Position numbers and translations under genes: made by a program. From a virus (taxonomy: Duplodnaviria; Caudoviricetes): a DNA stretch of 31,873 bases. How positions within the stretch are numbered: position 1 is the stretch's first letter; every line of letters begins with the position of its first letter. Below, piece by piece: positions 2,037-30,813 of the stretch. A model generated the notes under the pieces. The model was not told where the DNA came from, searched no databases, and saw only the letters and a program-made list of their open reading frames with translations. The DNA is taken from positions 1-31,873 of IMG/VR virus record IMGVR_UViG_3300033076_001170; one strand, 5' to 3'.

Positions 2037-2294
2037 ATGAATCTATGCAGAGTTAAAACATGGCTTATCTCATCTGGAGATGTTGCTGATGCGTATTGGT
2101 TACAAGAACAAGGAATCACCGCACACTACGATTCGGACAGCATCCCGTTTGCTGTTGGTAATCAAACGTATTATGTAAAAGGCACAACCAAGCTAACTGC
2201 GGAAACTACTACCGAAGAACAAGAACTAATGTTAAAATTAAAGTTCGCACCTAAACTATCACTGATGATGGACACAATAAATCGAATTGACTAA
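2037..2294 (+). CDS. Hypothetical protein
   Basis: ORF in a packed array. Confidence 0.7.
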   Translation: MNLCRVKTWLISSGDVADAYWLQEQGITAHYDSDSIPFAVGNQTYYVKGTTKLTAETTTEEQELMLKLKFAPKLSLMMDTINRID

Positions 2295-2315
2295 TAATTC
2301 AATTTGTAGTATACT
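2287..2315 (+). promoter_or_regulatory. Sigma70-type promoter
   Basis: TTGACT (2287-2292), 17 nt spacer, TATACT (2310-2315); ATG at 2322 lies at the expected +1. Confidence 0.7.
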
Positions 2316-2321
2316 ATGACT

Positions 2322-2525
2322 ATGATGACTCCTGAAAAAGAAAACACATTTAGAGCACTCAAGGACGAGCCTCCACTGGCAACACGACCTATTCGCTGTT
2401 GGCTAGGATGGCACAAGTGGTTGAAGTGGGGAGACCCTCGGCGACATCCAGGGAGCATCTATGTTCGCCAAAGCCGCTATTGTGCCGCATGTAACTATTA
2501 TCACGAACGAAAGTTTCAAGAATGA
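2322..2525 (+). CDS. Small Cys/His protein (DUF1660-like pattern), probably leaderless
   Basis: CWLGWHKW...CAAC; start could be 2316, 2322 or 2325. Confidence 0.65.
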   Translation: MMTPEKENTFRALKDEPPLATRPIRCWLGWHKWLKWGDPRRHPGSIYVRQSRYCAACNYYHERKFQE

Positions 2526-3784: not shown

Positions 3785-4969
3785 ATGATTTCACCAACTT
3801 TTTGTTCCGCCCCTTGGTTTGCAGTTAGAATAAATCGCAATGGCAAATATATCCCTTGTTGTCAAATCGATATTTCTAAAACAGAATTTAAAGGAAGAAC
3901 AGAATACTCAATGCATGATTCGACATTGGATCAATGGATGACCAGTGACTATAGTCAATATCTTAGAAAGTCGCTGGACAGTCACGCTAAAATTCCTGAG
4001 TGCTCTAACTGTTGGCAGAAAGAAGCTAGCGGGATCACAAGCGAGAGACAAATTTTAAACAACACTACCACACGAAATCAAGGTAATAATTTAGACAGCA
4101 CGTGGATCCCATTATTTTTGAAGCAAAAAAATTATTCAAAATACAGTGTGTTAACTGCCGACGTTAAATTAAGTAATATTTGTAATTTTAGTTGTGCTAT
4201 GTGTTCCCCAATGGACAGTTCCAAGATGTCCACTCAATGGGCAAACAACAAAGAAGTATTTTTTGTAAAACAAATTCTTGAAAAAACACCGGACTATTTT
4301 GAGAAAATTTCTAATATCTACAAAGACACTAGAGATTATAATCATTTAACAAATATTTTAGAACAGCCCTTGCAAAATCTCAAGTTACTAGGCGGAGAGC
4401 CTCTGCTTGATAAAAAGTTGTTTAAAATACTTGGCTCAGTGAGTTCGGAAAAAAAATCTCAGATTGCATTGCATTTTATCACCAATGGTAGTCAGAGTCT
4501 TGTTGATGCAGTTCGGTCATTGGATGGGTATAGGTCAATTAGTTTTAGTGTCAGTCTCGAAGGGGTTGGAAAAATCCAAGAATACATACGTTCCGGAAGT
4601 GACTGGAAACAAACCGAAGAGAATATTATATCTGCAAAACAAAACGGGATAGACGTTGTGATCCATCATGTATTACAATCGTTATCTATTTTAGGAACAT
4701 CGGAACTATTTAAATGGTGCACCGAACATGATCTCAAACTTTCCTTCCAGAATCTGGTTCGTCCTGACTTTCTTTCTTTAGCTGTGCTTCCTGACTCAGT
4801 TAAGCAGAAAGCAATAGACACGTTATCACAAAATAGGCAGGTTGTTAATTACATTAGTAAAATAACACCTACCCCAGAAAAATATCCAGAATTTCTTGAA
4901 TATGTCAAGTGGCTAGATAGCCAATCTCCGGTAAAATTAATAGAAATTTACCCAGAATTACTCGGTTGA
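3785..4969 (+). CDS. Radical SAM enzyme with N-terminal SPASM/twitch-like Cys domain
   Basis: CNFSCAMC (CxxxCxxC), LLGGEP, ITNG and SLEG motifs; N-terminal C..PW, PCC and CSNC. Confidence 0.9.
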   Translation: MISPTFCSAPWFAVRINRNGKYIPCCQIDISKTEFKGRTEYSMHDSTLDQWMTSDYSQYLRKSLDSHAKIPECSNCWQKEASGITSERQILNNTTTRNQGNNLDSTWIPLFLKQKNYSKYSVLTADVKLSNICNFSCAMCSPMDSSKMSTQWANNKEVFFVKQILEKTPDYFEKISNIYKDTRDYNHLTNILEQPLQNLKLLGGEPLLDKKLFKILGSVSSEKKSQIALHFITNGSQSLVDAVRSLDGYRSISFSVSLEGVGKIQEYIRSGSDWKQTEENIISAKQNGIDVVIHHVLQSLSILGTSELFKWCTEHDLKLSFQNLVRPDFLSLAVLPDSVKQKAIDTLSQNRQVVNYISKITPTPEKYPEFLEYVKWLDSQSPVKLIEIYPELLG

Positions 4970-4994
4970 CCATTAATTCCCGTTTTGCTATAAT
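4966..4994 (+). promoter_or_regulatory. Sigma70-type early promoter (repeated cassette)
   Basis: TTGACC-attaattcccgttttgc-TATAAT; AGGAG RBS downstream. Confidence 0.9.
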
Positions 4995-5024
4995 ATACGC
5001 ATAGACAGCAAAAAGGAGCAGAAA

Positions 5025-5297
5025 TTGGACTACACACTTCGCATTTATAAAGTTGACCGTCGTACCATATCTGGTGAGCGCCTAGTAGGTACTTACAATT
5101 TTGAGCGTAAAGATGCTGCGGCTATGGACCGCGAAGTGCGCGAACTCCGTCCGCTTTACCCTGCTACCAAATACCGCATTATTTGGGAACAAAAATACAA
5201 AACAGTTAAGAGCTTGATGACTGGGCAGGATGTGAAAATTGCTAGCGACACTCCTTGGTGTTGTAACCCTGCCAGCGAAACGTTTTGGAGCATGTGA
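5025..5297 (+). CDS. Conserved phage hypothetical protein
   Basis: TTG start after AGGAG; C-terminal TPWCCNPASETFWSM. Confidence 0.8.
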   Translation: MDYTLRIYKVDRRTISGERLVGTYNFERKDAAAMDREVRELRPLYPATKYRIIWEQKYKTVKSLMTGQDVKIASDTPWCCNPASETFWSM

Positions 5298-13009: not shown

Positions 13010-13077
13010 TCCACCCTCATAAAGTTATCTTACATCCGTGTAGGATGTTTCGCTATTTTCGTTTAAAAGGAGAACTT

Positions 13078-15002
<1,925 letters not shown>

Positions 15003-15025
15003 TGACCACCTGAGGTCATAAATAT

Positions 15026-15080
15026 GTGTACGGATGCCGATGGTCGGGTCCGTACACTAGTCATATCTTGCTATAAGGAG
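15026..15080 (+). promoter_or_regulatory. Two-hairpin bulged-G 5'UTR element / ROSE-like RNA thermometer of hsp20
   Basis: GTGTACGGAT-G-CCGA-tgg-TCGG-GTCCGTACAC, then CTTGCT-ata-AGGAG; follows TAAATA at about 15019. Confidence 0.75.
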
Positions 15081-15086
15081 AATAAA

Positions 15087-15530
15087 ATGACACAAAACAA
15101 AACTCTCACTCTTCGTTCTTTTGATATTCCACAACTTCACAAGTTTGGTATCGGCTTTGATAACATGCTTGACGAACTCATGCGTGTAACATCACAGCAA
15201 CAAACTAATTATCCCCCACACAACGTTCGCAAAATTGATGAAGATCATTTTGTAATTGACTTGGCTGTGGCCGGATTTGCTGAAGGTGAAATTGATATCC
15301 GTTTGGAAAAGAATGTTCTTACTATTCAAGGAGGAACAACACGCGACAGCGAAGGCGAGTATTTGGTTCACGGTATCAGCATGCGAGATTTTGAGCGCAC
15401 ATTTACCTTGGCTGAATACGTAGAAGTTACCAATGCAGAAATGATCAATGGTATCTTGTCAATCCGATTAGAACGTATTGTTCCCGAAGAAAAGAAGCCA
15501 AAGAGCATTGCAATCACTTACACTAAGTGA
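15087..15530 (+). CDS. hsp20: Small heat-shock protein Hsp20 (IbpA-like)
   Basis: IGFD, NYPPHN, LAVAGF, YLVHGISMRDFERTF, NGILSIRL and PEEKKPKSIAI; start after AGGAG. Confidence 0.96.
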   Translation: MTQNKTLTLRSFDIPQLHKFGIGFDNMLDELMRVTSQQQTNYPPHNVRKIDEDHFVIDLAVAGFAEGEIDIRLEKNVLTIQGGTTRDSEGEYLVHGISMRDFERTFTLAEYVEVTNAEMINGILSIRLERIVPEEKKPKSIAITYTK

Positions 15531-15536
15531 TATAAT
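15508..15536 (+). promoter_or_regulatory. Sigma70-type promoter for clpS
   Basis: TTGCAA-17 nt-TATAAT with extended TG; a TAAATA also follows at 15543. Confidence 0.6.
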
Positions 15537-15549
15537 ATAGTGTAAATAC

Positions 15550-15569
15550 AGCGGGAGGAAACTCCCGCT
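15550..15569 (+). other. Stable GAAA-tetraloop hairpin (terminator or 5' leader stem)
   Basis: AGCGGGAG-GAAA-CTCCCGCT; weak U tail, so the function is ambiguous. Confidence 0.6.
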
Positions 15570-15601
15570 ACTTATTATTGTTTTGAAAAAAAGGAATGGT
15601 T

Positions 15602-15910
15602 ATGTCACAGGCTGATGCAGCAACAAAAATTAAAATTAACGAGTCGATTAAAGAACCTGGACTGTTCAGGGTTGTTTATTTGAATGACAACCAGACTACT
15701 ATGGAATTTGTTATCGAAAGTTTAATTGAATTTTTTGATTACAGCACCTCAACGGCACTTAAAATTACCGAAGATATCCACAATAACGGTCAAGCCACTG
15801 TAGCAGTACTGCCATACGAAATTGCTGAACAAAAAGGAACTGAAGTATTGCAAAGTGCTCGAGTGCAGAACTACCCTCTGCAAATTAAAATCGAGCCTGA
15901 TCTAGGTTAA
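15602..15910 (+). CDS. clpS: ATP-dependent Clp protease adaptor ClpS
   Basis: P.LFRVVYLNDNQTTMEFVIESL...IHNNGQATV...EIAEQK...YPL. Confidence 0.93.
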   Translation: MSQADAATKIKINESIKEPGLFRVVYLNDNQTTMEFVIESLIEFFDYSTSTALKITEDIHNNGQATVAVLPYEIAEQKGTEVLQSARVQNYPLQIKIEPDLG

Positions 15911-21094: not shown

Positions 21095-21645
21095 AAATAA
21101 CCTGGGCCCTGGCAGATACTGCGGTATTAGATCCCGCAGTAGATCTCGACAAACTCAAAAACATAGGCCCGATTTGGGGCGGGTGGCAAACCTGGCGAGC
21201 CTGGGCCACTGACAATGTTATATGCCATGATGTAACACAAGCAAGAAGTCTTGTCAGCAGAGAATTCCATGCTCGATGCAATTTATATTTGCCTGCCGCA
21301 GCATACAAAGATTTAGATCGACCCATGGGAGTACATTTGTATCAAGGGGATTTCCACCAATCAGTTGATCACCCAGACGATATTGTTGCTATGCACTTAG
21401 CCGCAGCCAACAGTGATATTGTATTACTGTTTGGGTTTGATCTACAACCAAGAGATCTAGAGCATGATAAATTAGCCAAGCATCATTGGCATAATTATAA
21501 GAATTATGCCAAACACATTATTTTGAATAACCCTGATGTACAATGGGTTATTTTGGATCATACACCCAAAATCGACAAAGATCTCGAAAATTTACCAAAT
21601 TTGCTGTTTGACAAGCTAGATAATGTATTGACACAATTTTCATAA
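21091..21645 (+). CDS. Hypothetical protein (Rossmann-like, DIVLLFGFD as in Maf/MptE-like folds)
   Basis: ATGA overlap; AMHLAA..SDIVLLFGFD. Confidence 0.7.
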   Translation: MKITWALADTAVLDPAVDLDKLKNIGPIWGGWQTWRAWATDNVICHDVTQARSLVSREFHARCNLYLPAAAYKDLDRPMGVHLYQGDFHQSVDHPDDIVAMHLAAANSDIVLLFGFDLQPRDLEHDKLAKHHWHNYKNYAKHIILNNPDVQWVILDHTPKIDKDLENLPNLLFDKLDNVLTQFS

Positions 21646-21656
21646 TCTTGTATAAT
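21628..21656 (+). promoter_or_regulatory. Consensus sigma70 promoter for uvsE (leaderless)
   Basis: TTGACA-17 nt-TATAAT, ATG 6 nt downstream, no SD. Confidence 0.85.
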
Positions 21657-21662
21657 TACAGC

Positions 21663-22703
21663 ATGACTACACCTATTACACCACGTATCGGTTTCTGTTG
21701 CAAATGGATTGATGGCCCCAGTGAAACTGCGGGCCGTAAACCCACATCAGAAAGCCGTGATCTAAACGGGCGTTCCACTACCATGCGCTGGCTTCGCGAA
21801 CATGCAGACGAAGCAGTGCAACGTCAGTGGGATATTATGAATCACAATGCTCGTGCAGCTCTACTCATGGTAGAACGTGTGGGCACATTGCCGCCTGAAC
21901 GCCGTATGGTACGCCTAGGCAGCGAAATGTTACAAGGCTACACCGAACCCTCGTGGATTGACTGGTGGCAACAAAATGAGATTCAAGATCACTGCGAACG
22001 AATTTTTAAACCGGTGGGTGATGCTGCTCGGCGTCTTGGTGTCCGACTGTCCTTTCATCCAGGACAATTTTGTGTGCTGGCCAGCGAATCGGATGAGATC
22101 GTTCAACGATCGATTCTTGAATTTGAATATCATGCCGATATGGCGCGATGGATGGGTTATGGCCAAAGTTGGCACGATGAGGGTTTCAAGATCAATGTCC
22201 ACTTATCGGGTAAGGGAGGTTCTGAAAAGTTTTTGCAGACCTTCAAACGACTTTCTCCTGAAGCTCGTAATTTAATAACTATCGAAAATGATGAGGTGAG
22301 CAATGGACTCGATTCTGTTTTATCTGTGGCTGAGCATTGTGCTATTGTGTTGGATATTCACCATCACTGGGTCAAAACAGGGGAATACATCACACCTGAA
22401 GACCCTCGTGTTTTGCGGGTTCGTGAGTCTTGGCGTGGTGTGCGTCCTACTATTCACTTTTCTACTAGCCGCGAAGATATTTTGGTTGGGCATGATCGAT
22501 GCACTCGACCAGACCTTGCTCAACTTATTGCTGGAGGTCATAAAAAACAGCAACTCCGAGCACACAGCGATTTCTGCTGGAATGAAGCTGTAAACGATTG
22601 GGCTTTGAGCTTTGCCTCAGATTTTGATATTCAAGTCGAAGCCAAAGGTAAAAACATTGCAAGCGAGCAACTATATGAACGATTTATTAGCCAACGTGTT
22701 TGA
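21663..22703 (+). CDS. uvsE: UV damage endonuclease
   Basis: RIGFCC, RLSFHPGQFCVLAS, INVH, TIENDE, VLDIHHH, RAHSD and VEAKGKN. Confidence 0.95.
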   Translation: MTTPITPRIGFCCKWIDGPSETAGRKPTSESRDLNGRSTTMRWLREHADEAVQRQWDIMNHNARAALLMVERVGTLPPERRMVRLGSEMLQGYTEPSWIDWWQQNEIQDHCERIFKPVGDAARRLGVRLSFHPGQFCVLASESDEIVQRSILEFEYHADMARWMGYGQSWHDEGFKINVHLSGKGGSEKFLQTFKRLSPEARNLITIENDEVSNGLDSVLSVAEHCAIVLDIHHHWVKTGEYITPEDPRVLRVRESWRGVRPTIHFSTSREDILVGHDRCTRPDLAQLIAGGHKKQQLRAHSDFCWNEAVNDWALSFASDFDIQVEAKGKNIASEQLYERFISQRV

Positions 22704-23758: not shown

Positions 23759-24025
23759 ATGTTTACAGCAGACGCAACCATCGACGCAGTTCAAACTGCA
23801 AAAAAGACCTTCGTTAACACATTCGTAACAAACGAAGCAGTTAAAACACCATTAATCAAGTTCATCGACGCACAAGCCGATTACACTAAGAAGGCAGCTA
23901 AAGTTGGTATGGACACTTTTACTTCGTTGTCGAGCGAAGCACTGAAGCAAGCACAAGAAGCCACCAAGTTTGACTTCAACAAAGCATACGCTGAATTGGC
24001 TGAAAAGTTCAGCTTCAAAAAGTAA
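23759..24025 (+). CDS. Small amphipathic helical protein, phasin-like
   Basis: A/K/T/F-rich, no Cys or Trp, apparently all-helical; strong SD. Function is inferred. Confidence 0.6.
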   Translation: MFTADATIDAVQTAKKTFVNTFVTNEAVKTPLIKFIDAQADYTKKAAKVGMDTFTSLSSEALKQAQEATKFDFNKAYAELAEKFSFKK

Positions 24026-24045: not shown

Positions 24046-24071
24046 AACCCGCCCAGGTGGCGGGTTTTGTT
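24046..24071 (+). terminator. Rho-independent terminator
   Basis: AACCCGCC-caggt-GGCGGGTT followed by TTGTT. Confidence 0.8.
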
Positions 24072-24099
24072 TGACCAAAAATGCCCGATTTGCTATAAT
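24071..24099 (+). promoter_or_regulatory. Sigma70-type early promoter (repeated cassette)
   Basis: TTGACC-aaaaatgcccgatttgc-TATAAT. Confidence 0.9.
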
Positions 24100-24129
24100 A
24101 TACACATACAGAAACAAAAGGAGCTGACA

Positions 24130-24429
24130 TTGGACTACACTACAATCTACATGCTGGGCTTTATCTTCACAGTTGGCGCATTCGCTGTTCGTGCTCGTGA
24201 TGTTGATACTCGCACACTGTTTGTGATTGCTCTAGCTTGGCCTGCTAGTATGGCATTTACCTTGCTTATTGTGTTGCTAAGTTTGTTCAAGTGGGACTTG
24301 GATGTGGCCGAGTCCCCCAAGATGTTTGGATTCCGTAAAGCTACCAATCCCAAGATGCGTGGTATTGCTGTCTCTGTGTTTGGTACAGAACTCCAGTTTT
24401 ACGGTCCACGCAAAACGGTTGACCAATAA
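24130..24429 (+). CDS. Small membrane protein
   Basis: TTG start after AGGAG, same leader as 5025; two hydrophobic segments. Confidence 0.75.
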   Translation: MDYTTIYMLGFIFTVGAFAVRARDVDTRTLFVIALAWPASMAFTLLIVLLSLFKWDLDVAESPKMFGFRKATNPKMRGIAVSVFGTELQFYGPRKTVDQ

Positions 24430-24447
24430 TTGCCGTTTTGTTATAAT
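24419..24447 (+). promoter_or_regulatory. Sigma70-type early promoter (leaderless transcript)
   Basis: TTGACC-aataattgccgttttgt-TATAAT, ATG 7 nt downstream. Confidence 0.88.
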
Positions 24448-24454
24448 TACACTT

Positions 24455-24604
24455 ATGAAACCGATACATTTTACACTGCCGCCAGTCAAGGAACGTCGAC
24501 ATCGTGCTCTATTCGATCGAGACTTGCCGTTCCGCGGCCGTGTGGAACAACCAAAAACAGTTTACAATCGTAAACCAAAACACCGCAATCGCAACCAAGA
24601 CTAA
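24455..24604 (+). CDS. arfA: ArfA-like alternative ribosome-rescue factor (49 aa)
   Basis: ALFDRDLPFRGRVEQPKTVYNRKPKH aligns with ArfA [28 protein letters not shown]. Confidence 0.65.
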   Translation: MKPIHFTLPPVKERRHRALFDRDLPFRGRVEQPKTVYNRKPKHRNRNQD

Positions 24605-24608
24605 TCGA

Positions 24609-24637
24609 TTGACCGATTATTCCCAATTTGCTATAAT
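24609..24637 (+). promoter_or_regulatory. Sigma70-type early promoter (repeated cassette)
   Basis: TTGACC-gattattcccaatttgc-TATAAT; TAAGGAGG SD downstream. Confidence 0.9.
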
Positions 24638-26383: not shown

Positions 26384-26418
26384 AGCGTGATAAGTAATTG
26401 GATAACCAGTTACCTATC

Positions 26419-26991
26419 ATGCCACTAGACAAAGAACTGCCAGAAACAAGATCTCATTCAGAACAACTACAAGACAGCGGAATATATGTCTTCATGGGCG
26501 AAGTTGACGAAGAGTCAATTCAGCCCATAATTGAGTGGATACTAGCAGAAAACCACGTAGTTAAAAAGAAGAAAAAAGAACTGTTGCTAATGATTTGCAG
26601 TTCCGGCGGCGAGCTAGAAGCTGCTTTTGCACTGATAGATGTCATCCGTAGTAGCACAATTCCTGTAAAAACTGTGGGACTAGGGCAGATTGCCAGTGCA
26701 GGGCTAATGATATTCTTAGCTGGCAAACCACGTATACTAACTCCTAACACCAGTATACTAAGCCACCAATACAGTTGGGGTAGCGAAGGCAAGCACCACG
26801 AACTCTGGGCAGTCACTAAAGAATTTAACCTAGTTCACGAACGCATGCTAGCACATTACAAGCTGGCAACTGGACTAGACGAAGCGACTATAAAAACAAA
26901 ACTGCTTCCCCCGCAAGATGTTTACCTTAGTGCAGAAGAAGCAGTTCAATTGAGAATCTGCAATTATATTTCAGACCTGACTCATCGTTGA
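26419..26991 (+). CDS. clpP: ClpP-like serine protease
   Basis: ICSSGG, GQIASAG (Ser), ILSHQ (His), QDVYLSAEEAV (Asp). TTG at 26398 is an alternative start. Confidence 0.9.
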   Translation: MPLDKELPETRSHSEQLQDSGIYVFMGEVDEESIQPIIEWILAENHVVKKKKKELLLMICSSGGELEAAFALIDVIRSSTIPVKTVGLGQIASAGLMIFLAGKPRILTPNTSILSHQYSWGSEGKHHELWAVTKEFNLVHERMLAHYKLATGLDEATIKTKLLPPQDVYLSAEEAVQLRICNYISDLTHR

Positions 26992-30511: not shown

Positions 30512-30540
30512 TTGACCAAAATTCCCGTTTCGGCTATAAT
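30512..30540 (+). promoter_or_regulatory. Sigma70-type early promoter (leaderless transcript)
   Basis: TTGACC-aaaattcccgtttcggc-TATAAT, ATG 6 nt downstream. Confidence 0.88.
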
Positions 30541-30546
30541 AATAGC

Positions 30547-30813
30547 ATGAACAAAACAGAAAAAGCATGTTGGGTAGTATCATTTACACTTTTGGTAGTG
30601 TTTATTGTCACTGCTGTGATCAACGATTGCACAGGCACTGACGAAGTGGTTAGCGAGCCCTACTTTTCCTATTACTCATACTGCTCAAAATACAGTTATG
30701 GTCCCAAAGGGATTTCCACCTGTGTTGAAATGAGCGGTGCTCACGAAAAGCGTGTGGACACCCTGCATCATGGGGTGTTTTGGACACAGAATTCTTACAA
30801 AGTTGTAAGGTAA
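30547..30813 (+). CDS. Small membrane-anchored protein
   Basis: N-terminal TM segment followed by a Cys-containing domain. Confidence 0.7.
   Translation: MNKTEKACWVVSFTLLVVFIVTAVINDCTGTDEVVSEPYFSYYSYCSKYSYGPKGISTCVEMSGAHEKRVDTLHHGVFWTQNSYKVVR

Follow-up and report, generated by a model that had tools for sequence, protein, structure and literature searches.

The closest described relative of the peptide analyzed here is the rescue factor ArfA (YhdL) of Escherichia coli and other gamma- and betaproteobacteria (PF03889; PDB 5MDV, 5U4I, 5H5U, and 5MGP). In ArfA, Phe25 and the strand of residues 26 to 30 dock on RF2 (PMC5378476, PMC8012679), and the patch formed by Leu19, Leu24, and Phe25 binds RF2 Trp319 (PMC5378476). 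In E. coli, the ArfA(A18T) variant still binds and brings in RF2 but fails to activate it (PMC8012679, PMC5378476). Compatibility between species is low. A Lys-His pair contacts U534 of the 16S rRNA both in ArfA and in BrfA of Bacillus subtilis (PDB 6SZS), a small factor with a basic C terminus in the mRNA channel that, according to excerpts of the source, shares this contact and the strand added to RF2 and rescues ribosomes with an N terminus unlike that of ArfA (PMC6881298). ArfT of Francisella is analogous at the level of a small rescue factor, and arfT has no RNase III site (PMC8874680).

Phage ArfA genes have been reported by annotation, namely, g10 of Citromicrobium phage RXM (PMC8953757, in excerpts) and gp30 of pelagiphage HTVC027P, the latter described in excerpts of its source as highly expressed at 3 h and at 12 to 15 h after infection (PMC12753301). 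In the open-access literature, part of it seen as excerpts and with subscription papers outside its scope, no functional test of a phage ArfA was found, and the literature searched yielded no description of a phage inhibitor of trans-translation. The name "arfa" is reportedly also used for an unrelated anti-restriction protein.

A short conserved gene on viral contigs

The window, that is, the whole 31,873-nt stretch of DNA analyzed, is a 31.9-kb virus record from a large uncultured phage, with a CheckV completeness of 9%. Positions 24455 to 24604 of its plus strand hold an ORF of 49 codons plus TAA, nested, as a sequence-only reading had claimed, in a mis-started call, the 100-codon ORF from ATG 24302 (Table 1). 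The residues quoted in that reading are present in the translation, and those quoted from E. coli ArfA are also correct. The longer ORF was rejected: in 16 close relatives, the reading frame before the ATG stays open for a median of 9 codons, compared with 58 here.

Table 1. Coordinates of the features at the locus and of other predicted leaderless starts in the window
Feature	Positions	Strand	Basis
Upstream promoter, for the TTG ORF at 24130	24071..24099	+	Promoter scan; just after terminator-like hairpin 24046-24066
Spurious N-terminal extension of the 100-aa ORF call, outside the gene	24302..24454	+	Overlaps upstream ORF and promoter; closed in relatives
sigma70-type promoter of the 49-aa gene, TTGACC-17-TATAAT, with TG extension	24419..24447	+	11/12 matches; equivalents in relatives
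7-nt spacer and ATG; predicted transcription start at the ATG or 1 nt before (putatively leaderless)	24448..24457	+	Sequence, without SD match
49-aa ORF, putative ArfA-derived phage peptide, TAA stop	24455..24604	+	Sequence, homologues, selection, single copy in large relatives
Family-specific motif, residues 14-25, R-x-H-x-[AV]-L-F-x-x-x-[LTS]-P	24494..24529	+	Conservation; predicted short helix 17-20
F26-E31, counterpart of ArfA F25-E30 (putative hydrophobic RF2 contact and strand added to RF2)	24530..24547	+	Profile alignments
Shortened linker, 3 residues fewer than in ArfA, no GKG	24548..24562	+	F-to-Y spacing; motif counts
Y37-x-R39-x-x-K42-H43, counterpart of the ArfA mRNA-channel anchor (putative binding)	24563..24583	+	Conservation
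Promoter of the next gene, a 223-aa lipoprotein-like ORF from 24675, with SD	24609..24637	+	Promoter scan, TG extension; weak lipoprotein signal match
67-aa ORF at 2322, predicted leaderless	2287-2324		6 nt after near-consensus -10 box
UvdE endonuclease, predicted leaderless, true start probably ATG 21663	21628-21665		6 nt after near-consensus -10 box
88-aa ORF at 30547, predicted leaderless	30512-30549		6 nt after near-consensus -10 box

The 49-aa ORF is a real, strongly conserved gene. Its differences from 15 close relatives are distributed over the three codon positions as 94/99/333, and the pooled pN of 0.144 against a pS of 0.655 (pN/pS, 0.22; codons 2 to 44) denotes purifying selection. 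A protein search confirmed 81 homologues among 81 candidates, and a scan of viral contigs confirmed 99 of 127 pattern matches, with 80 loci kept; the close relatives lie on viral contigs. A profile built from 59 diverse members retrieved 275 clusters at 50% identity, the best 150 of which are the representatives behind all counts out of 150 given below. The gene is single copy in all four related phage records of 252 to 349 kb. Two DNA runs from a single study, which may be the source sample, contain contigs identical across the ORF, and no RNA runs containing the gene are listed.

Among 185,579 prokaryote genomes scanned, there were 132 pattern matches and 6 weak tblastn matches (E, 2e-5 to 2e-4), four of the latter spanning just 11 to 16 residues, and a family-profile search of one host genome gave a best E of 0.02. 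Cellular members of the family, bacterial or archaeal, may thus exist. The search found no cultured phage covering 80% of the peptide. A match was seen in Acinetobacter phage 133, for which one reading frame was examined, and a match in RP12/RP31 was set aside, being antisense and inside another gene. One 404-aa protein without the family motif (P0379) is filed in a 52-aa family cluster, probably as a clustering artifact.

In the JGI annotation, 19 of 26 named homologues of the peptide carry the label "stalled ribosome alternative rescue factor ArfA," as do 7 of 9 named members of the window protein's own 90% cluster. With close relatives so labeled and phage ArfA genes reported before, in excerpts of PMC8953757 and PMC12753301, the novelty implied by the sequence-only reading was overstated; the surprise is limited because such genes were already annotated.

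ArfA likeness of the C-terminal half

Taken alone, the window protein had no match in NCBIfam, Pfam, or the ArfA PDB chains in single-sequence searches. The Pfam ArfA search that had been proposed as a check turned out negative, with the protein below the PF03889 gathering cutoff of 25.5 bits, and this model was touched weakly by 4 of 82 close members (best E, 0.039) and 1 of 59 diverse members (best E, 0.2). Family profiles searched against 177,635 PDB sequences gave six matches at an E of ≤10, all six of them ArfA (best E, 0.0025 and 0.0055), and no BrfA chain was among the matches of either profile at that threshold. For a direct comparison, 50 ArfA loci from 401 Pseudomonadota genomes were reduced to 41 aligned sequences by dropping 9 near-duplicates. 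Against these, hhalign gave a probability of 86.8 (pairwise E, 4.3e-6) for the diverse family alignment over residues 17 to 49 and of 90.0 (pairwise E, 1.6e-6) for the close family alignment over its full length, including the N-terminal part. Additionally, an ArfA HMM scored the window protein at 10.5 bits, a value reached by none of 1,000 shuffles, and placed 81 of the 150 representatives above the shuffle 99th percentile.

Half-profiles of residues 26 to 49 exceeded the shuffle 99th percentile on 33/41 and 29/41 bacterial ArfAs, and those of residues 1 to 25 or 10 to 25 on 0/41, with targets cut at the aligned Phe, which favors the C-half test somewhat. As judged by these profiles, the likeness to ArfA is confined to residues 26 to 43, corresponding to the RF2-recruiting strand and the channel anchor, and the N-terminal head is not detectably homologous. 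Consequently, of the ArfA identity claimed earlier, a distant homology of the C-terminal half holds (profiles, hhalign, and HMM), and residues 1 to 25, which lack ArfA similarity, fall outside it. Since the Pfam cutoff was not reached, the peptide is best described as an ArfA-derived variant and not as a canonical member, with a C-terminal half that it appears to share with the phage DUF7230 proteins.

What the peptide has in common with ArfA is the F-R-x-R-V-E strand followed by the Y-x-R-x-x-K-H anchor, a basic C-terminal half, and a length near the 46 to 48 residues seen in ArfA structures. It differs in the 3-residue deletion that removes GKG, in residues 1 to 25, in the absence of N14 and of a long tail, and in its score below the Pfam cutoff; moreover, it has its own stop, no conserved hairpin, and a leaderless promoter layout, and it occurs on viral contigs.

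Conservation at the residue level

Within the family-specific motif, R14, L19, and P25 are invariant in 59/59 diverse members, and H16 and F20 are found in 58/59. An AlphaFold2 monomer of the peptide (pTM, 0.19) has a short helix at residues 17 to 20 and otherwise no regular structure; this predicted helix fits the ArfA helix of residues 15 to 24 only loosely. L19, P25, and F26 of the family align where ArfA has its L19/L24/F25 patch. Of the N-terminal minidomain by which ArfA opens RF2 (a small residue 18, N14, and P23), N14 is missing and the proline lies one place off P23.

The sequence-only reading had placed much weight on Ala18. The site so numbered is alanine in 78 of the 82 close relatives and Ala or Ser in 40 of the 41 bacterial ArfAs. 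However, among the 150 representatives, 131 conform to the pattern, and of these, 57 have V at this site, just 35 have A, 16 have I, 10 have E, 7 have M, and 6 have another residue, so that Val or Ile accounts for 73 of 131, and the N terminus resembles that of ArfA in none of 41 comparisons. Furthermore, the residue lines up with position 18 of the E. coli protein only if a one-residue gap is introduced, and the gap-free register gives the invariant Leu19. Because the site is variable, the argument from Ala18 fails across the family.

In the C-terminal half, F26 is present in 59/59 diverse members, and R29, V30, and E31 are present in 79, 74, and 77 of the 82 close members, being more variable in the diverse ones (E31 in 34/59). 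A counterpart of ArfA F25 and the strand docking on RF2 thus appears to be retained in the family. R39, K42, and H43 are kept in 59/59 and Y37 in 57/59, which bears out the conservation claimed for the F, Y.R, and K-H positions (57 to 59 of 59); in bacterial ArfAs, K-H is present in only 21 of 41.

The GKG motif occurs in 41/41 bacterial ArfAs versus 0/82 close members and 0/150 representatives, and the F-to-Y spacing is 11 (120 members) or 12 (11 members) among 131 family members versus 14 in all 41 ArfAs. G35, K36, and G37, three of the four residues invariant across the bacterial set, are thereby deleted in the phage family; a literature search for mutational data on this loop found nothing relevant. 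The tail after K-H has a median of 7 residues (137 of 150 representatives scored), and the reported loss of both the GKGS loop and the long tail is accordingly a property of the family.

Relation to other phage proteins

Viewed together, the phage ArfA-like proteins appear to constitute a graded superfamily of three forms. The first keeps GKG or GRG and includes RXM g10, HTVC027P gp30, BAMBUS_05560 of Brevundimonas phage Bambus, and an unannotated ORF of Ralstonia phage RsoM2USA. The three annotated proteins resemble the peptide in being ORFs of 39 to 60 aa with stop codons and an ArfA-like C-terminal half but differ in two respects, an N-P-x-A N terminus and a retained GKG/GRG loop, with an F-to-Y spacing of 14; the 49-aa family profile gave them 1.3 (RXM g10), 2.6 (HTVC027P gp30), and -1.0 bits (Bambus), not above shuffles. 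The RsoM2USA ORF (MG752970; L140:2534-2656; 40 aa; Pfam ArfA, 25.7 versus 25.5) lies under an opposite-strand hypothetical CDS and is followed by a tRNA-like sequence (by eye).

The second form lacks GKG and has an ArfA-like head, and it comprises a protein of Pseudoalteromonas phage J2-1 and the DUF7230 proteins Acj9p003 and Paride_0503; the third, also without GKG and with a replaced head, is the 49-aa family. Proteins of the second form scored 15.7 to 30.3 bits with the 49-aa family profile (0/500 shuffles as high), which gave E. coli ArfA 18.6 bits but did not recognize the first form. The J2-1 protein (ATN93434; L082:1465-1620) acts as a bridge, passing both Pfam ArfA (41.3 versus 25.5) and DUF7230 (28.6 versus 27); it has no GKG and an F-to-Y spacing of 11 residues, and it shares 43% identity with the window protein across 40 aa.

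DUF7230 (PF23876), phrog_2701, and phrog_6310, with Acj9p003 of an Acinetobacter phage and Paride_0503 of a Pseudomonas phage, share with the 49-aa family the GKG deletion and the Y-x-R-K end but have N-P-x-A where the family has R-x-H-x-x-L-F. For the window protein itself, no DUF7230 match was obtained (cutoff, 27 bits), and matches among family members amount to 45/82 at an E of ≤10 and 32/59 at an E of ≤1. One member scores 27.2 bits over model positions 15 to 35 only, and three have a DUF7230 stretch at an E of <0.001, restricted to model positions 15 to 35 or 15 to 33. In the open-access literature, no function and no mention of DUF7230 were found. Acj9p003 (L178:650-781) and Paride_0503 (L176:659-811) look like GKG-less ArfA relatives, and matches to Acj9p003 occur in 85 phage records, of which 69 are from Acinetobacter phages.

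With BrfA, the similarity would be one of working and not of sequence. Both are small factors with a basic C terminus, a Lys-His pair, a putative strand addition to RF2, and a non-ArfA N terminus, whereas the phage profiles have no sequence match to BrfA, and the model of the phage peptide has only a 4-residue helix compared with the N-terminal helix of BrfA.

Stop codon, mRNA folding, and promoter

The own stop codon reported for the ORF is found in all 60 complete distinct loci (TGA in 42 and TAA in 18; one contig-end fragment was dropped). In the window, the mRNA of codons 5 to 33 is predicted to fold into a long hairpin (24468-24555) with a z of -3.4, and 0/200 shuffles were as stable. This hairpin was rejected as a family RNase III site, since 55 distinct ORFs fold in different ways (median z, -0.8; z below -2 in 10), and a single 7-pair stem, with 0 compensatory pairs, is all that remains in the consensus fold of the alignment. 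As a control, E. coli arfA shows its 3' hairpin in the same kind of folding. None of the features that mark ArfA as the product of a non-stop mRNA (a terminator or RNase III hairpin within the ORF, gating by tmRNA, and an unstable tail) was found in the 49-aa family. Given its own stop codon, the lack of a long hydrophobic tail, and the lack of a conserved hairpin, it can reasonably be inferred that the gene escapes the RNase III/tmRNA gate.

The position claimed for the ORF, between two sigma70 promoters and without an SD, was confirmed. The element TTGACC-17-TATAAT recurs with 11/12 matches at 24071, 24419, and 24609. A scan of the whole window gave 10 promoter-like sites versus 9.5 expected in shuffles, so the support for these promoters comes from match quality and conservation. 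The ATG lies 7 nt past the -10 box and is not preceded by an SD match of ≥3 nt, unlike the genes at 23759, 24130, and 24675, which carry GGAG-type SD sites. Across 61 distinct loci, after dropping 3 without an in-frame ATG and duplicates, the ATG is 6, 7, or 9 nt past the -10 box at 50/55 strict promoters upstream of the gene versus 40/244 other promoters, counts that are not independent because the loci are related. The 9-nt spacing (28 cases) likely yields a 3-nt leader, and a leader precedes the gene in 3 of 16 close relatives.

A leaderless start thus appears conserved for this gene but common to other genes of the phage, being predicted for at least four genes in the window, including UvdE and two other ORFs; a further 8 loci also show the leaderless UvdE start. 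Between 24066 and 26993, the scan detected no terminator-like site, so the transcript probably continues into the next genes, and the promoter at 24071 could read through into the 49-aa gene. Therefore, of the "own leaderless early transcript" proposed before, the own promoter and the conserved leaderless layout stand, the transcript is probably not monocistronic, and its early and leaderless character is read from the DNA.

The TGA stop of the gene falls within the TTGAC -35 box of the next promoter in 21 of 60 distinct loci (e.g., L003:5154-5156), and the TAA stop of the window copy precedes that box by 4 nt. Two promoters far from each other in the window (4966-5040 and 24071-24145) are followed by near-identical leaders, an SD, and the same TTG-GAC-TAC start, which suggests a duplicated expression cassette.

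Genome context and host

The gene lies between an 88-aa ORF (20/21 close loci) and a ClpP-like gene (18/21), and its immediate neighbors vary, being kept in 0/21 and 5/21 close loci. The 88-aa ORF upstream (23759-24025) is conserved at 57 to 80% identity in those 20 loci; it has no significant Pfam or PHROG match, and our impression is that it is phasin-like. Host-type proteostasis genes in the window comprise GroEL (13045-15910) and the ClpP-like protease (26398-26991), as well as GroES, Hsp20, and ClpS recognized by eye only. In the relative G005 (L174:1453-2878), bS21 directly follows a ClpX-like ORF (named by eye). The four large relatives, two of which are ≥97% complete, encode bS21 and 23 to 39 tRNA matches; none of the four has a release-factor domain or a tmRNA over the cutoff, although a divergent tmRNA may be present.

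The window GroEL is 70 to 73% identical to its 25 best of 1811 plasmid-collection matches, all betaproteobacterial, and 66 to 69% to gammaproteobacterial records in another collection. This weakly suggests a betaproteobacterial host; the DNA ligase, tried as another host clue, matched only distant phages. In excerpts of a survey of 1000 betaproteobacterial genomes, arfA is present in 37 and arfB in 709 (PMC11633108).

Possible roles of the peptide

We propose, at a probability of roughly 0.55, that the peptide is an ungated ribosome-rescue factor, with residues 26 to 43 being a homolog of the half of ArfA that docks on the ribosome and on RF2. The observations behind this proposal are the ORF, its selection, the C-half homology, the stop codon, and the promoter spacing; its steps of binding and activity are conjectural. 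The host sigma70 polymerase would make a leaderless mRNA early in infection, and the gene would escape the RNase III/tmRNA gate by which ArfA is limited in E. coli. On a ribosome stalled on broken mRNA, the basic Y-x-R-x-x-K-H segment would then insert into the vacant 30S mRNA channel, and F26-E31 would add a strand to host RF2. In the weakest step, the R-x-H-x-x-L-F-x-x-x-x-P motif, replacing the ArfA N-terminal minidomain, may help to open RF2, so that the peptide would be released untagged and the ribosome recycled for phage mRNA.

The retention of L19, P25, and F26 at the RF2 patch counts for rescue, since a pure plug would gain less from conserving them, and BrfA, which is active with a non-ArfA N terminus, makes a replaced N terminus compatible with activity. 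Also on this side are the profile evidence for ArfA homology, the bS21 and tRNA matches of the four large relatives in the absence of a release-factor domain, and the low frequency of arfA (37/1000) in the weakly indicated host class. Against rescue, the homology is short, rich in Lys and Arg, and modest in E-value, and the head is unlike that of ArfA (0/41), often with Val or Ile at the Ala18-numbered site, besides the deleted GKG and the missing N14. Moreover, most Betaproteobacteria already have tmRNA and ArfB (709/1000), which makes it less than obvious why more rescue capacity would be needed. A complex prediction with a stand-in RF2 alignment gave a score of 0.01 (mark, 0.32; controls not folded) and speaks neither for nor against rescue.

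Sequence cannot separate such a rescue factor from a nonactivating plug, which is its main rival and which we regard as unlikely. The peptide would dock in the empty channel, hold RF2 closed like ArfA(A18T), and exclude tmRNA-SmpB, ArfB, or host ArfA, leaving ribosomes parked on cleaved host mRNA or tmRNA tagging blocked. This would agree with an ArfA likeness limited to the docking half, the half responsible for activation being replaced, and with the often beta-branched residue at the Ala18-numbered site, given that ArfA(A18T) recruits RF2 without activation (PMC8012679, PMC5378476). However, the replaced motif is nearly invariant, as expected for a working contact, and phages with N termini closer to that of ArfA carry the same GKG deletion. 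Sequestered ribosomes and RF2 would also harm translation of the phage itself, and 42 of the 60 stops in the 49-aa gene family are TGA. Termination at TGA needs RF2.

It is rather doubtful that the peptide binds the 30S channel with another partner or for another job, such as acting with RF1 or with both release factors (like ArfT), protecting or splitting idle ribosomes, or favoring leaderless initiation together with phage bS21. The channel-anchor residues are the best conserved of the ArfA-like ones, E31 varies, several window genes have predicted leaderless starts, and relatives carry bS21, but invariance is seen at F26 and the hydrophobic residues before it, the ArfA counterparts of which confer specificity for RF2, and an occupied channel should block initiation, not help it. 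Finally, a basic nucleic acid-binding peptide working outside the ribosome, with a convergent or vestigial ArfA likeness, is very improbable: the protein itself has no curated-family match, the matched stretch covers about 18 to 24 residues, and the closer families (DUF7230, phrog_6310, and phrog_2701) are of unknown function, but composition-preserving shuffles and reversed sequences fail to give the ArfA scores, ArfA is the only PDB match, intermediates pass both the ArfA and DUF7230 cutoffs, and an ESM Atlas feature search lists, as a lead only, an ArfA-labeled cluster at 0.90 in which 23% of members carry the family.

Implications

Stuck ribosomes accumulate when phages degrade host transcripts or when defense ribonucleases fire. 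An ungated phage rescue factor, if that is what the peptide is, would be a direct route to reclaim them, and a plug would be a new way of blocking host quality control. At 49 residues, the peptide is easy to test with standard assays. The family is also a natural experiment on the need for the invariant GKG loop and the Ala18 minidomain in ArfA, and it offers a candidate function for the DUF7230 genes of cultured phages. More tentatively, the 49-aa family and DUF7230 could possibly form a phage-specific class of mRNA-channel binders in which the ArfA docking half was kept, the GKG loop was dropped, and a new R-x-H-x-x-L-F head activates release factors in hosts lacking ArfA or inhibits trans-translation. 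If this were true, the phage would set how the host handles ribosomes stalled on cleaved mRNA, including mRNA cut by defense ribonucleases.
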